This document shows, piece after piece, positions 24,171 to 63,457 of a DNA stretch of 64,000 nucleotides. Position 1 is the stretch's first letter. Each line of letters begins with the position of its first letter. Source of the DNA: Dehalococcoidia bacterium (GTDB lineage: Bacteria > Chloroflexota > Dehalococcoidia > SM23-28-2 > RBG-16-64-32); assembly GCA_963665775.2 (NCBI GenBank), contig CAXXTF010000002.1:736001-800000 (forward strand), written 5' to 3'. The notes under the pieces were generated by a model. The model had not been told where the DNA came from, searched no databases, and was given only the letters and a program-made list of their open reading frames with translations. Both the position numbers and the translations under genes were made by a program.

Positions 24171-25045
24171 TGGGGCGCGGCGCCCTTCATCTCGAACAGC
24201 TCCGGATGGTTGGTGGCGTTGAGGGCACGCAGCCAGTCCATCTGCTGGCCGAGCGTGGCGTAGTACTCCTCGCGCCCGGCGAAGCGGACGAAGCGGGCCA
24301 CGTGAGGGCTACGACAAACGGAGACGCGGTCGCCCCTGGCCAGAGGGCGATCCACCTCGCCATCGATGCTCACCACAGCCTCGGACTCCCCGTCTACCAC
24401 AAGACCAACCTCGGCCTGGGGCGGCAGCACCAGCGCCCGTGCAGAGGCCAGATGGGGGGCTACCGGCGTAATCACCATCTCCTGCGACTCCGGGTGGAGG
24501 ATAGGCCCCCCGGCGGACAGCGAGTAAGCCGTGCTGCCCGTGGCCGAGGCCACGATAACGGCGTCGCAGCGGTAGAGCGCCAAACGGGAGCCATCGACAA
24601 AGATGTCCATATATACGGGCCGCCCAGCGGAGCTGCGCCCCGCGACCACATCGTTCAGGGCGTGAAAGGTCAGGCCCCAGGCCGGCACCTGCGCCTGGAC
24701 CATCGTTCGCTCTTCGATGCGGCACCGGCCCTCCAGGACGTCCGGGAGCCGTTCCAGCAGCTCCTGGGGCCGCAGCTCGGCCAGAAAGCCCAGCCGCCCC
24801 ATGTTCACACCGAGGACGGGCACAGAGTGCGGGATGATCGTGCGGGCAGCCCAGAGCATCACCCCATCTCCGCCCAGGCAGATGAGCAGGTCCGTACCGG
24901 GGATCTGCTCCGGCGCCGCCTCGTCGTCCCAGGCGGCGGTCTGCCAGACCTCCTCAACCTTGCCGGTCAAGAAGGCCTCCACACCGTCCGCCAGGTCGCG
25001 GGCGGCGGTCCAGCGCGGGTGAACCAGGATGCCAACCTTCCTCAC
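24167..25045 (-). CDS. nadK: NAD kinase
   Basis: GGDG, GRLGFL, ND, TGSTAYSLSAGG; GTG at 25045 overlaps the tlyA stop. Confidence 0.93.
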   Translation of the reverse strand: MRKVGILVHPRWTAARDLADGVEAFLTGKVEEVWQTAAWDDEAAPEQIPGTDLLICLGGDGVMLWAARTIIPHSVPVLGVNMGRLGFLAELRPQELLERLPDVLEGRCRIEERTMVQAQVPAWGLTFHALNDVVAGRSSAGRPVYMDIFVDGSRLALYRCDAVIVASATGSTAYSLSAGGPILHPESQEMVITPVAPHLASARALVLPPQAEVGLVVDGESEAVVSIDGEVDRPLARGDRVSVCRSPHVARFVRFAGREEYYATLGQQMDWLRALNATNHPELFEMKGAAPQ

Positions 25046-25797
25046 GAGGACGCCGCCCCTTCGGCTTCGCTCGCGACAGGCATCAGCCGAAAGAAGAACT
25101 CGCGGTTGCCGGCTGCCCCCAGAATGGGCGAGGACGTGAGCCCTCGGATGCGAAACCCATCCCCCGCACACCAGCCTACGAAGCGCCCGATAAGGGTAGC
25201 GTGCAGGAGTGGCTCCCGCACTATCCCTCCCCTGGACACTTCCCCCTTCTTGGCTTCAAACTGAGGCTTGAACAGGGCCACGATAGAACCCCCCGGGCTG
25301 AGCAGGCGCCGCACCACCGGCAGCACCAGCCGCAGCGAGATGAAGGAGACATCCACCGTGGCGATCTCCACGGGCTCCGCCAGCCCCTCCAGATAGCGCA
25401 CGTTCACCCGCTCCATGACGACGACTCGCGGCTCCTGTCGCAGGCGGTAAGCCAGCTGGCCGTGGCCCACGTCGATCGCGTACACGCGAGAGGCTCCGTG
25501 CTGAAGCAGGCAGTCGGTGAAGCCCCCGGTCGAGGCGCCGATATCGGCGACGACGACTCCCCTCACATCCAACTCGAAGGCGCGCAGGGCGTGCTCCAGT
25601 TTATCGCCGCCGCGGCCCACGTAACGCTGCCGCTCGGCTACCTCCAGAGAGGCCCCCTCATCGACGAGGGTAGCCGGCCTGACGACCTTCTGCGCCTCCA
25701 CAAGCACCGAGCCGGCCATGACCAGGGCTTTCGCCCGCTCCCGACTGTCCGCCAGCCCTCGCTCCAGAAGCAGCACATCCAACCTCTGCTTGCCCAT
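25042..25797 (-). CDS. tlyA: TlyA family rRNA 2'-O-methyltransferase
   Basis: RLDVLL S4 domain, DIGASTGGFTD, DVSFISL, KPQFE, GNREF. Confidence 0.95.
   Translation of the reverse strand: MGKQRLDVLLLERGLADSRERAKALVMAGSVLVEAQKVVRPATLVDEGASLEVAERQRYVGRGGDKLEHALRAFELDVRGVVVADIGASTGGFTDCLLQHGASRVYAIDVGHGQLAYRLRQEPRVVVMERVNVRYLEGLAEPVEIATVDVSFISLRLVLPVVRRLLSPGGSIVALFKPQFEAKKGEVSRGGIVREPLLHATLIGRFVGWCAGDGFRIRGLTSSPILGAAGNREFFFRLMPVASEAEGAASS
25057..25080 (-). repeat. Mini-hairpin repeat copy in the tlyA 3' end
   Basis: Minus strand CCTGTCGCGAGCGAAGCCGAAGGG, encoding PVASEAEG. Confidence 0.7.
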
Positions 25798-35638: not shown

Positions 35639-36883
35639 ATGAAGCCTGACCCCCTGAGCCTCTACCTCCACATCCCTTTCTGCTCCCTGAAGTGCCGCTA
35701 TTGCGACTTCAACGCCTACGCCGGGCTGGACAAGCTCGTGCCGCCTTACGTGGACGCCCTCATCGCCGAGATGGGGCTCTGGCGGCAGGCCGTCCGCGGG
35801 CGGCCCGTCCCTACCGTCTTCTTCGGCGGCGGCACCCCCAGCCTGCTGCCCCTTCCCGAACTCGAGCGCATCATCGCGGCCTTGCGAGACAGCTTCGACC
35901 TCGACCCGGAGGCGGAGCTGACCCTGGAAGCGAACCCCGGCACCGTCGACCTCCCCTACCTCCAGAGGCTGCTGAGCCTCGGTGTGAACCGCCTGAGCCT
36001 GGGCGTCCAGTCCTTCCACGACGACGAGCTGGCGGCCCTCGACCGCATCCACTCGGCCCAGGATGCGAAGGACGCCTATCTGTGGGCCCGCCAGGCCGGA
36101 TTCCACCGCCTCAGCCTCGACCTCATCTATGGCCTGTCCCAGCAGCCCCAGGAGCGCTGGCAGGCCACCCTGGAGCAGGCGATCGAACTGGCACCCGACC
36201 ACCTGTCGCTCTACGCCCTCACGGTAGAGGAGGGCACCGGGCTCGCCTACGACGTCGATCACGGCCGCGTGCCGTCGCCGGACGCCGATGCCCAGGCCTC
36301 CATGTACGAGTGGTCCGAGGAACGGCTGGCCCGAGCGGGCTACCGCCAGTACGAGATCTCCAACTGGGCGCGGCCCGTCCTGAGCGAAGCCTCTCCTGAG
36401 CGTAGTCGAAGGGCCGAAGGGCCGGGACAGGAGTGCCAACACAACCTCGTCTACTGGCGGAACGGCGACTGGCTGGGGCTGGGCGCCGGCGCCCACTCCC
36501 ACCTCGACGGCATCCGCTTCGCGGACGTGTACTCGCCCCGGCAGTATATACGTCGCCTGCAGCAGACCGCCGAGCGCGGCCTGCCCGAGGGCGGCGGCAC
36601 CTACGCCCTGCTGAAGGCGATGGGGCAGGTGACCTACCTGGAGGAGGGCTCGCCGGAGATGGCGATGGCGGATACCGCCATCCTGGCCCTCCGGCTGAAC
36701 GAAGGATTGAACCCAGCCCACTTCAGCGCTCGCTTCGGCCGGACTCTGGAAGAGGTGTACGGGCCGACTCTCGCCGAGCTGACCACCCTAGGGCTCATCG
36801 AGAGCACCGACTCTCGCCTCCGCCTGACCCCTCGCGGCCGCCTCCTGGCCAACGAGGTGTTCGTCTGCCTGCTACCGGACTAG
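35639..36883 (+). CDS. hemW: Radical SAM heme chaperone HemW with a 16-aa repeat-derived insert
   Basis: [35 protein letters not shown]. Confidence 0.92.
   Translation: [414 protein letters not shown]
36374..36421 (+). repeat. Two nested 24-bp mini-hairpin repeats, in frame in hemW
   Basis: CCCGTCCTGAGCGAAGCC[TCTCCTGAGCGTAGTCGAAGG]GCCGAAGGG. Confidence 0.85.
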
Positions 36884-60835: not shown

Positions 60836-63457
60836 CTACGTTCCACTCTTCCGCGCCCGCTCCGCCAGCTCGTACAGCTTTGTGATCGCCTGCAGCGGCG
60901 TCAGCGAATCCACTTCCAGCTCCGCCAGCTCTCGCGCCAGGACGCCGTCCGCTGCGAACAGGGGGAGCTGCGGCGCCTCCTCTCGCCGACGTCGTGACGC
61001 TGGCGGTGCGCGCCGGTCGGCGGCGGCCTCTAGCTCCTCCAGAAGCTCCTGGGCGCGCAGCACGACCGCCCGCGGCAGGCCGGCCAACTGCGCCACGTGC
61101 ACCCCATAGGAGCGATTGGCGCCGCCCGGGAGGATCCGGTGCAGGAAGACGACCCGGCCCTCCTCCTCCGCCACCGCCACGTTGAAGTTGCGCACCCGGG
61201 GCAGAAACGCGGCCATCGCCACCAGCTCGTGGTAGTGGGTAGCGAACAGCGTCTTCGCCGCCGCCTCCGGCCGGCCGTGGATGAACTCCACCACCGCCCG
61301 CGCGATCGCCATCCCGTCGTAGGTGCTCGTCCCCCGGCCGATCTCGTCGAACAGGAGCAGAGAGCGCGGCGAAGCGCCGTGCAGGATCGCCGCCGTCTCC
61401 AGCATCTCCACCATGAAGGTGGAATGGCCGGCGCCGATGTCATCCAGGGCTCCCAGCCGGCTGAATATCCGGTCCACCAGACCGATGCGTGCCTCGGCCG
61501 CGGGGACGAACGAGCCGACCTGGGCCAACAGAACGACGAGGGCTACCTGGCGCAGGTAGGTGGACTTACCGGCCATGTTGGGGCCGGTAAGGACGATGAT
61601 CTGCGCCTCGCCGCCCGACATCTGCACGTCGTTAGGCACGAACGAGCCCTCGGCCAACATCCGCTCCACCACTGGGTGACGCCCGTCGCGGATCACGATC
61701 TCGTCGCCGTCATCGACGCTGGGACGCACGTAGCCGTAGCGGGCGGCCGCCTCCGCCAGACCGCAGTACACATCGACGACAGCCACCACGGCAGCGGTCT
61801 CCAGGATGCGCCGCCCCTGGGCGGCTACCTGAGCGCAGACCTGACGCAGCAGATTCTGCTCCAGCTCCTGCTGGCGCTCCTGAGCATGCAGGACGCGGAA
61901 CTCGTACTCCTGGAGCTCTGCCAGCGTGAAGCGCTCCCCGCCCACCAGGGTCTGGCGGCGCTGATAATCCGACGGCACGTGCTCCAGGTTCGCCTTCGAC
62001 ACCTCGACGTAGTAACCGAACACCCTGTTGTAACCCACCTTGAGGTTCCTGATACCCGTGCGCTCCCGCTCCCGCCGCTCCAGGTCGGCCAGGTAGCGGC
62101 GGGCATCGCGAGCCGTGGCCCGCAGCCCGTCCAGCTCCTCCGAGAAGCCCGCTCGGATGACCGCCCCCTGCTGCGGGTCGTCGGCGATGGCCCGCGCGAT
62201 GAGATCCGCCGCCTCCCGACAAGGGTGCAGGCCCAATGTCAGCTCCTCGTAGACCGCCTGTTTCCCTCCCAGCGAGGCCGGGTCATGGTCCAGCGCCTCC
62301 CGCAGGGACGGCACGATCTCCAGACCCCGGCGCAGGGCCACCAGATCGCGGGGAACGCTCGCGGCCCCAGCGGCCGCTGCGGCGGCAGAGATGCGCGCCA
62401 GCACCCGCTCCAGATCGGGAATCTTGGCCAGCAGGGCCGCACAGAGACCGCGCCGCACCGCCGAATCGAAGAAAAGCTGCACCCCATCCTGACGCTGACC
62501 TATCGCTGTTATGTCAAGCAGGGGCTGGCCCAGCCACCTCCGCAGGAGGCGCACGCCCATCGGCGTCCTGGTCTGATCCAGTACGGAGAACAGGGAGATC
62601 GCCTCCCCGTCCGACCGCAGTGTCTGAAACAGCTCCAGATTCCGCCGGGTGTTGACGTCCAGCGCCATGAATCCCCCCGCCTGGTAGGGCGAGAGGCGAG
62701 AGATATGGCCCAGGACGGCCCGCTGGCTCTCCTGAAGATAGGCCAGGACGGCACCGGCGGCCCTCGCCGCCAGGGTCAGGCCGGCCAAACCCAACCCCTC
62801 CAGCGACGGCGTCCCGAAGTGCTCCAGAAGGCGCTGAACCGCCCCCTCCGACTCGAAGCTGTCATTGGAGAGAGGGGTCACGCTGGCCGTGACCCCAGCC
62901 GGCGAAGAACCCCCCTCTGGCAGCAACAGCTCAGCGGGGCGCAGCCGCTCCAGTTCGGCGGCCACAGCGTCGGTATCAACCTGGGTACAGGCGAACTCGC
63001 CGGTCGACACGTCCACGTGGGCCAGGCCGGCTTGGCCGTCGCCCGGGAGAACGGCGACCAGGTAGTTGTTGGTGCCGCGGCTCAGGAGGTTCTCCTCAAC
63101 CAACGTGCCCGGGGTCACCACCCGCACCACCTGGCGATCCACCAGCTTCTTCCCCTGGCCCGGCTCACCTGCCCTGAGCGCAGTCGAAGGCTCCATCTGC
63201 TCGCAGATCGCCACCTTGTACCCCTTGCCGATGAGCCGGGCCAGGTACGAGTCCAGAGCGTGATAGGGGATGCCCGCCAGCGGCACCCGCTGTCCCTTCC
63301 CCACCGGCCGCGAGGTAAGGGTGATCTCCAGCTCCCGGGCTATGGTTTCGGCGTCCTCGTCGAACGTCTCGTAGAAATCGCCCAGCCGAAAGAACAGGAT
63401 GGCATGGGGATAGCGCCGCTTCATATCCAGATACTGGCGGCGTAGAGGCGTGGTCAC
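60836..63457 (-). CDS. mutS: DNA mismatch repair protein MutS
   Basis: FFRLGDFYETF, TGPNMAGKST, STFMVEM, DEIGRGT, ATHYHEL. Confidence 0.97.
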   Translation of the reverse strand: MTTPLRRQYLDMKRRYPHAILFFRLGDFYETFDEDAETIARELEITLTSRPVGKGQRVPLAGIPYHALDSYLARLIGKGYKVAICEQMEPSTALRAGEPGQGKKLVDRQVVRVVTPGTLVEENLLSRGTNNYLVAVLPGDGQAGLAHVDVSTGEFACTQVDTDAVAAELERLRPAELLLPEGGSSPAGVTASVTPLSNDSFESEGAVQRLLEHFGTPSLEGLGLAGLTLAARAAGAVLAYLQESQRAVLGHISRLSPYQAGGFMALDVNTRRNLELFQTLRSDGEAISLFSVLDQTRTPMGVRLLRRWLGQPLLDITAIGQRQDGVQLFFDSAVRRGLCAALLAKIPDLERVLARISAAAAAAGAASVPRDLVALRRGLEIVPSLREALDHDPASLGGKQAVYEELTLGLHPCREAADLIARAIADDPQQGAVIRAGFSEELDGLRATARDARRYLADLERRERERTGIRNLKVGYNRVFGYYVEVSKANLEHVPSDYQRRQTLVGGERFTLAELQEYEFRVLHAQERQQELEQNLLRQVCAQVAAQGRRILETAAVVAVVDVYCGLAEAAARYGYVRPSVDDGDEIVIRDGRHPVVERMLAEGSFVPNDVQMSGGEAQIIVLTGPNMAGKSTYLRQVALVVLLAQVGSFVPAAEARIGLVDRIFSRLGALDDIGAGHSTFMVEMLETAAILHGASPRSLLLFDEIGRGTSTYDGMAIARAVVEFIHGRPEAAAKTLFATHYHELVAMAAFLPRVRNFNVAVAEEEGRVVFLHRILPGGANRSYGVHVAQLAGLPRAVVLRAQELLEELEAAADRRAPPASRRRREEAPQLPLFAADGVLARELAELEVDSLTPLQAITKLYELAERARKSGT
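63167..63190 (+). repeat. 24-bp mini-hairpin repeat in frame in mutS
   Basis: ACCTGCCCTGAGCGCAGTCGAAGG; adds PSTALRAG on the coding strand. Confidence 0.8.

Follow-up and report, generated by a model that had tools for sequence, protein, structure and literature searches.

Small GIY-YIG nucleases of the Ssn type cut single-stranded DNA beside hairpin repeats (NTS/SRM), which flank the Ssn genes and are also scattered through genomes; in the portions of the source drawn on here, the authors remark on an insertion sequence (IS)-like layout of repeat, gene and repeat, and NTS is described as rarely intragenic (Chenal et al. 2025, Nat Commun, PMC11893778). We report here a dispersed unit of 24 nucleotides (nt) in DNA from a Dehalococcoidia bacterium, within a stretch of 64,000 nt (contig CAXXTF010000002.1, positions 736,001 to 800,000; the whole stretch is hereafter called the window) in which the gene hemW contains 48 extra bases. 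These 48 bases are two copies of the unit, one lodged within the other, and the unit probably belongs to a GIY-YIG-linked, hairpin-type repeat family found across phyla.

The architecture of repeat plus GIY-YIG gene resembles that of the Ssn nuclease/SRM system. As far as the same portions of that account go, the likeness lies in a small single-domain GIY-YIG gene (~95-107 aa) with short inverted repeats, here putative hairpins, on both sides, in many dispersed copies far above chance, in an oriented upstream leader and in a spread across phyla. Our case differs in that essential genes contain most of the copies, which are in frame and take the form of solo units of 24 nt, of nested units or of arrays with a 24-nt period, and in that both filled and empty sites could be demonstrated.

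A second likeness is to the small dispersed repeats (SDR) of Nostoc and its relatives, reportedly treated by Elhai et al. in 2008 in Genome Res, which are said to be 21-27 nt long, to be nested in themselves and to occur in heptamer tandem repeats; their mobility, too, was reportedly inferred from filled and empty sites. By this description the SDR are like our unit in its 24-nt size, in its five nested copies with one junction and in its heptamer contexts. Unlike the SDR, the elements described here were met in Chloroflexota as well as in many further phyla; they mostly lie in coding sequence and have a link to a candidate enzyme gene.

Two further kinds of repeat invite comparison. Rickettsia palindromic elements (RPE; Ogata et al. 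2000 per Delihas 2011, PMC3184786) are, in the parts of the latter review used here, ~105-146 bp long and restricted to Rickettsia; judged by those parts they are alike only in habit, that is in the selfish in-frame insertion into protein genes that adds a tolerated peptide segment, whereas our unit has 24 nt and a core that is found across many phyla. REP and REPIN sequences, according to the sections of Bertels and Rainey 2011 (PMC3116915) considered here, are extragenic and stand beside genes for Y1 transposases (REP-associated tyrosine transposases, RAYT). Within the limits of those sections they share with our unit the short hairpin repeats, their tandem or clustered arrangement, a mechanism proposed to act on single strands and an enzyme gene that is present once and has repeats on its flanks; but our units surround GIY-YIG genes and lie within coding sequence, and the palindromes of the one RAYT-like gene in the genome of the window differ from the unit. 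The REP/RAYT model is a weaker fit to the unit.

The hemW insert and its alleles

The open reading frame (ORF) that hosts the insert matches Pfam Radical_SAM (1.6e-25) and HemN_C (1.1e-17), and HemW is the name given by the sources to its close homologues. The extra 48 bases, 36373-36420, are in frame and add 16 residues after YEISNWAR. Each unit consists of a 6-nt leader, usually GCCTGY but in hemW GCCCGT and GCCTCT, followed by an 18-nt core, CCTGAGCGNAGYCGAAGG. A preliminary description of the window, made from its letters only, had seen a hemW motif split by 48 bp, with an inner copy TCTCCTGAGCGTAGTCGAAGG at 36392-36412 between two GCC triplets (36389-91 and 36413-15) and with GGCC (36372-75 and 36420-23) bracketing the insert, and all of this is correct to the base. 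It had further claimed that removal of the inner copy restores an intact outer one; indeed, excision of 24 nt around the inner core, for which there are four equivalent cut positions, leaves the perfect outer core CCTGAGCGAAGCCGAAGG. Placement of the outer unit slides by -1 to +3 bases owing to the flanking GGCC. The inner and outer copies differ at 4 of 21 positions, and hence are not a fresh duplication.

The same description had expected alleles of 0, 24 and 48 bp among relatives, and all three lengths were found. HemW is present in 36 of the 41 related genomes that we compared, and in all 29 relatives whose HemW loci were aligned there is no residue at the insert site, the run reading ...NWAR-PGQEC...; the empty site in relatives is GCG CGG CCG GGA (ARPG). 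In a set of HemW homologues comprising the 120 best of a very large protein collection, the 0-bp allele is represented by P0002 (89% identical, 398 aa, no insert) and the 24-bp allele by P0003 (82% identical, 406 aa), which carries exactly PVLSEAEG at the same codon and so corresponds to the outer unit alone; the 48-bp allele is that of the window. Related peptides stand at the same site in P0006 (PALSDAEG, encoded in locus L033 by CCTGCCCTGAGCGACGCCGAAGGG) and in P0033, P0039 and P0046 (all PVLSGVEG).

Public contigs from four sequencing runs (X1, X9, X15 and X18) were aligned to 36100-36700. Record 9 of X15 and record 16 of X18, which come from two studies and may be the source of the window DNA, show no differences over this whole interval, and in a third study record 24 of X9, a contig of 151 nt, carries the insert unchanged. 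In other contigs of X1 and X9, base 36372 is followed at once by 36421, so that exactly 48 bases are skipped, the joint being ambiguous by 3 bases. The empty-site contig of X1 shows 8 differences in the next 280 bases, which means that a relative ~97% identical has an empty hemW site. A skip of 24 nt was not seen among the contigs listed in the four runs, and this is no evidence of its absence, as contigs drop rare variants.

A quick maximum-likelihood tree of HemW, built from the 60 best of the 120 rows with the insert columns removed, groups (P0003,(P0001,P0002)) with Shimodaira-Hasegawa-like approximate likelihood-ratio (SH-aLRT) values of 99 and 99. On this tree the insert label changes six times for six labelled rows, and at least four of these changes are forced by well-supported branches, so that the site has been hit repeatedly or has been emptied precisely. 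For the window's own lineage, the near-identical empty contigs favour recent gains. Both the nested double insertion in hemW and its mobility are well supported.

In an AlphaFold2 model based on the 120-row HemW alignment (mean predicted local distance difference test score, pLDDT, 90.5; residues 249-261 below 50), the insert forms a low-confidence loop between short beta strands. The position which had been noted just before an HNxxYW motif is borne out, as the loop directly precedes the invariant H268-N269-L270-x-Y272-W273. Distant HemW relatives have unrelated inserts, including heptamer repeats, in the same loop, which is a generally permissive place.

Two other places in HemW also contain in-frame repeats. 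In a second loop, after GAHSH..G (reference residue 291), many relatives have heptamer-type tandem repeats (loci L009, L011, L012, L027, L032, L045, L049, L056, L058, L063 and L066), with runs such as AAGGAGG, GGAACAA, GGGAAAT and AAGATGG, read as KEEGGRRKE, NKEQGT and KMEDGRWKM; repeats inserted in frame thus include a further class. At reference residue 168, reverse-orientation copies of the PFDSAQD type occur in P0077, P0092, P0106, P0109, P0117 and P0120 and in loci L038, L044 and L052, and these are themselves interrupted (FDS-PSAALRAA-QDE) at an internal point that differs from that of the hemW insert. A tandem pair, 16 residues long, is seen in P0022.

Table 1. Coordinates of hemW, of unit copies in the window and of the GIY-YIG cassette on contig C2 of genome G000.
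Feature	Position	Strand	Remarks
hemW (radical SAM heme chaperone), host ORF of the insert	35639..36883	+	414 aa
Outer unit, left 16 nt: GCCCGT leader + CCTGAGCGAA	36373..36388	+	joined to 36413-36420 gives a perfect core
Inner unit, 24 nt: GCCTCT leader + core CCTGAGCGTAGTCGAAGG	36389..36412	+	at 5' edge of the outer unit's GCC
Outer unit, right 8 nt: GCCGAAGG	36413..36420	+	
GCC after the insert	36421..36423	+	target, or short repeat shared with the unit start
Unit ACCTGC + CCTGAGCGCAGTCGAAGG in mutS (gene on opposite strand)	63167..63190	+	adds PSTALRAG; Pfam MutS_I, II, III
Decayed unit GCCTGT + CGCGAGCGAAGCCGAAGG	25058..25081	-	2 mismatches; C-terminal end of FtsJ/S4-domain methyltransferase ORF 25042-25797 (-)
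Only small GIY-YIG gene of G000	C2:1387001-1387297		98 aa, single domain; Pfam GIY-YIG 1.9e-18
GIY-YIG cassette + duplication	C2:1386914-1387378 (locus L281:1408-1872)		5' end of mutS2-like gene; outside the window

Insertion sites, nesting and spread of the 24-nt unit

The hemW copies are not the only ones. With up to two mismatches allowed, the core occurs three times in the window against 0.12 expected (none of 100 shuffles reached three), and the exact core occurs exactly seven times in G000, the 2.35-Mb genome of the window. Nine of the 11 copies that were placed (0-2 mismatches) fall in coding sequence, and hosts of other G000 copies are housekeeping genes, confirmed by Pfam. Comparison with five relatives revealed filled and empty states at several of these sites: mutS has exactly 24 extra bases, 63167-63190, all five relatives being empty; aroK-aroB has exactly 24 (eight codons), with four of four relatives empty; and an M20 peptidase gene has 24, with three of four relatives empty, G016 being filled and G022, of the same genus, empty. 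The larC gene is eight codons longer than in all five relatives, within a variable stretch, and the C-terminus of pyrR is extended by a copy of the unit, as is that of the FtsJ/S4 methyltransferase in Table 1. The copy in ftsY lies in a variable N-terminal stretch where no clean empty site can be defined.

A single placement, the 6-nt leader followed by the 18-nt core, fits every filled/empty pair. The triplet that follows the unit is GCC in six of the eight comparisons (hemW outer, hemW inner, L007, L033, and the M20 gene in both G000 and G016), GCT in aroK-aroB and CTC in mutS. Of the two successive insertions put forward in the preliminary description, each made up of 21 bp and a target duplication of 3 bp, the succession stands, with 24 bases added each time and one insertion nested in the other; the division into 21 and 3 is not established. 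Against a strict duplication of three target bases speak the triplets at the two ends of the unit, which mismatch in mutS (ACC...CTC) and in aroK-aroB (CCC...GCT), and the data are fitted equally well by a unit of 24 nt with GCC as its first bases and a landing site 5' of another GCC, this being indistinguishable from 21 bp with a duplicated GCC. The unit length of 24 nt also accounts for the retention of the reading frame, as had been claimed. Either orientation and more than one frame are represented among the copies, with peptides that include LRLRSG, and five of the six frames of the unit are free of stops; this, together with its length of eight codons, allows solo units of this Chloroflexota clade to survive in the loops of essential proteins.

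Two intergenic copies in G000, at C2:1342082 (+) and 1353252 (-), have a GTTTAT leader and lie inside a longer repeated stretch, with a variant, CATCATTCTGAGCGAACCGAAGAATC, 47 nt after the first of them. The commonest 14-mers of G000 (36 copies) are part of a ~21-nt repeat, GTCCTTCGGTGGATTCGGGCT.

Nesting of the hemW kind recurs. A left fragment of the core with a complete core no more than 20 nt after it was sought in the 41 genomes, and five of them gave 19 matches: five nested copies, 13 tandem junctions and one variant. The five nested copies (hemW, G011:C4:53028, G008:C8:3565, G008:C24:12460 and G012:C4:4550) are all interrupted at the identical point, between CCTGAGCGNAG and CC-TGT/TCT-CCTGAGCG, just 5' of GCC. 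At all 13 tandem junctions the spacer is GCCTGT, which gives a period of 24 nt. Where Y is C, the GCC inside a unit is thus a preferred landing place, which accounts for nesting and arrays alike. A tandem array also lies in G000 at C2:802230-802350, 2.2 kb past the window end; its unit is GCCTCC + CCTGAGCCCACCGAAGG + A, a 17-nt core variant, and its period is 24 nt despite a core that is one base shorter.

The exact core is present in 28 of the 41 related genomes, at 0-61 copies per genome, and its reversed control in none of the 41. In a scan of one genome per species it was found in at least 123 stretches, the groups among the matches listed being Cyanobacteria, Acidobacteriota, Bacteroidota, Alpha- and Gammaproteobacteria, Spirochaetes, Planctomycetes, Armatimonadetes, candidate-phyla bacteria and Chloroflexota, and five genomes of other phyla have 4-30 copies each (control 0). 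The GCCTGY leader precedes 28 of the 131 copies read; other copies have a leader of GTCAY type, with the core at the tip of longer variable stems. Arrays of heptamers enclose the core in loci of Cyanobacteria and Anaerolineales (L173, L203, L224 and L239). In G000 the wider family of the repeat numbers 33 members, against two for the reversed control.

With regard to folding, the longer-stem locus L163 has z-scores of -1.8 as DNA and -2.3 as RNA, and compensatory swaps of stem bases are seen in L272 and in the downstream copy of the G000 cassette described below. Over 20 loci, Rfam held no matching family at E up to 1, its output consisting only of unrelated RNase P RNA, one tRNA and sub-threshold microRNA models. 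A literature search by sequence or peptide did not find the core or its peptides in print, and the core was absent from the 10 supplementary files of Chenal et al. that were searched (PDFs lay outside the search).

GIY-YIG cassettes and a proposed explanation

The connection with GIY-YIG nucleases emerged from a natural triple array of the unit, which in a BLAST search against plasmids had one match, the end of a GIY-YIG nuclease gene on a Sphingomonas plasmid. This gene encodes 106 aa, has an inverted element pair upstream with compensatory stem changes, and overlaps a reverse copy at its 3' end; the same type of GIY-YIG protein adjoins the core in L188 and L225. In G000 the product of the only small GIY-YIG gene (Table 1) has as its closest solved structures the UPF0213 proteins 1ZG2 and 1YWL, and matches no NCBIfam model. 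Upstream of the gene stands CTCATCCTGAGCCTGTCGAAGGACGAG, and downstream an inverted loop copy with swapped stem bases. The whole cassette measures 390 nt and lies between two direct copies, each of 37 nt, of the beginning of a mutS2-like gene.

At the same mutS2-like place, G002 also has a cassette. In G017 the start of the mutS2-like gene is duplicated, with ~130 nt and no nuclease gene between the two copies, and in G022 and G016 a solo inverted end is kept upstream.

Small GIY-YIG ORFs number 0-7 per related genome; family f2 has neither small GIY-YIG genes nor core copies. We examined 30 GIY-YIG loci, made up of 16 whose protein is at least 54% identical to that of G000, 10 of a second subfamily and four more. 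The motif GAGC(N3-4)YCGAA, in forward orientation upstream and reverse downstream, flanks the gene in 10 of the 16 related loci and is present on at least one side in 13 of them, against a background of 8 matches in 59.8 kb. The 10 loci of the second subfamily have other inverted motifs instead, and four of the 30 loci have no local match. In L272, L188, L225, G042:C3, G044:C1 and G008:C38 no more than 300 nt separate the exact 18-nt core from a small GIY-YIG gene, and in L272, L188 and G042:C3 the core flanks the gene. A link between the unit and GIY-YIG cassettes is supported by adjacency in several phyla. In the second subfamily (L287, L291, L293 and L297; 31-43% identical to the G000 protein) the different inverted motifs, for example CTGTCATTCCGAGGAGYGSAGCGACGAGGAATCT, resemble by eye the GTCATTCC...GGAATC frame of Neisseria NTS.

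Around small single-domain GIY-YIG genes, family members stand as terminal inverted repeats. We propose that the product of these genes, a putative single-strand nuclease, would bind the unit in single-stranded DNA and cut at or near its 5' edge; unit-length pieces may then be copied or re-inserted beside GCC during replication or repair. In hemW, a first unit would have entered at GCGCG^GCCGGG, in a surface loop, and a second would then have landed within that unit, immediately 5' of the GCC inside it.

Several observations weigh against this explanation. The 24-bp allele of P0003 is seen as protein only, and not at its DNA junction, and the nearest-neighbour fold of the bare 24-nt unit is no better than that of shuffles. 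The SRM string HGTCWYN(0-2)YYVSBRHN(0-5)WNVSBRGN(0-2)RNCYNB matches none of the 131 copies and nothing in the hemW region or in the G000 cassette, and that cassette has a 17-nt core variant, GAGCCTGTCGA, rather than the 18-nt GNAGY type of hemW. Core and gene may also part company: in G035 (81% complete), with 28 core copies, no small GIY-YIG gene was found, while G005, G014 and G021 have 4-5 small GIY-YIG genes and no exact core. The correlation of core copy number with GIY-YIG gene count is modest (rho 0.41) and confounded by kinship. Finally, the insertion chemistry and the role of the enzyme are what we infer from sequence, and to our knowledge GIY-YIG nucleases are not known to join DNA.

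The alleles of 0, 24 and 48 bp in hemW nevertheless provide a clean natural example of a 24-base sequence that behaves as mobile DNA in an essential gene, and one that is tied to a candidate enzyme family. The comparison with the SRM string suggests that the published definition of SRM repeats misses a large class found across phyla. The unit also explains a common nuisance, the 8-residue indels (e.g. PSASLRTG) in proteins from Chloroflexota metagenomes. A bolder and still doubtful suggestion is that the GIY-YIG cassettes are true transposable elements, and that among mobile units of DNA none smaller than their 24-nt solo hairpin has so far been seen, a minimal nuclease site moving single-stranded and inserting beside GCC and into itself. 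If this were true, 8-residue insertions would be seeded in the loops of essential proteins across Chloroflexota, with an 18-nt core common to many phyla, and Ssn-type nucleases would gain a selfish origin and a role in the evolution of protein length.

Alternative explanations

Considering other ways in which the units might move, it seems unlikely to us that a REP-associated tyrosine (Y1, IS200-like) transposase is responsible, by excising a single-strand hairpin and inserting it by a short target with no duplication. Such chemistry would fit the lack of a clear duplication, the short preferred target and the precise empty sites. Matches to Y1_Tnp occur in 23 of the 41 relatives, in 19 of the 28 core-bearing genomes as against 4 of the 13 without the core, and their count correlates with the core count (rho 0.50); G000 itself has one RAYT-like gene (NF047646, 56 bits, cut-off 80). 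Within family f1, however, the correlation drops to rho 0.36 (p 0.075), and G009 and G026, with 13 and 7 copies, have no Y1 match, whereas G005 has four Y1 matches and no core. Moreover, the palindromes inside and beside the RAYT-like gene of G000 are of the form GTAG...CTAC, with no 24-nt unit there, and it is GIY-YIG genes, not Y1 genes, that the units directly surround.

Import of the whole insert-bearing hemW allele from another strain by recombination has in our judgement a low probability. The occurrence of related inserts at the hemW site in scattered lineages, with the six label changes for six rows (at least four of them forced), is what such exchange could produce, but import merely shifts the insertion events to the donor, and in its flanks the window's allele comes nearest to P0002 and the X1 contigs, neither of which has the insert.

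It is very improbable that there was a single insertion, with the second 24 bases arising by replication slippage or local duplication within one element. Short repeats, GCC and CGAAGGGC, do flank the pieces of the hemW insert, and tandem arrays of the unit exist elsewhere; the order of the pieces, however, is left-left-right-right and not head-to-tail, so that slippage would need two duplications, of 16 nt and of 8 nt. Nor does slippage explain the four differences in 21 positions between inner and outer copies, and four other nested copies, in three other genomes, have the same junction.

An assembly artefact, which had been named as a possible refutation and for which there is nothing beyond the general risk of repeats in metagenome assemblies, is negligible in the face of identical sequence in contigs from three studies (two of them possibly the window's source DNA), of the intact frame and of homologous single-unit alleles.

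Three other ideas were set aside. A reverse transcriptase as driver was rejected: five of the 41 relatives have PF00078, but the genomes with many copies, G008, G015, G035 and G011, all lack it. Replication-strand bias was unusable, with weak GC skew on two contigs and only ~10 copies. The unit is also not a MITE (miniature inverted-repeat transposable element; two terminal inverted repeats, a fixed duplication, ~50-500 bp), as it is a single 24-nt piece and its flanks in mutS and aroK-aroB differ.

The RAYT-like gene of G000 (C2:1417341-1417958; L271:1342-1959; Y1_Tnp 22.6 bits) has some features of its own. It contains an in-frame palindrome of ~80 nt (arms L271:1596-1633 and 1640-1677) near an HUH region reading NHLRG. 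The stretch of the palindrome from GTAGGGGCAGG... to ...CCCCTAC measures ~62 nt by eye, and a further palindrome, GTAGGGACGCACGG/CCGCGCGTCCCTAC, lies at the 3' end of the gene.

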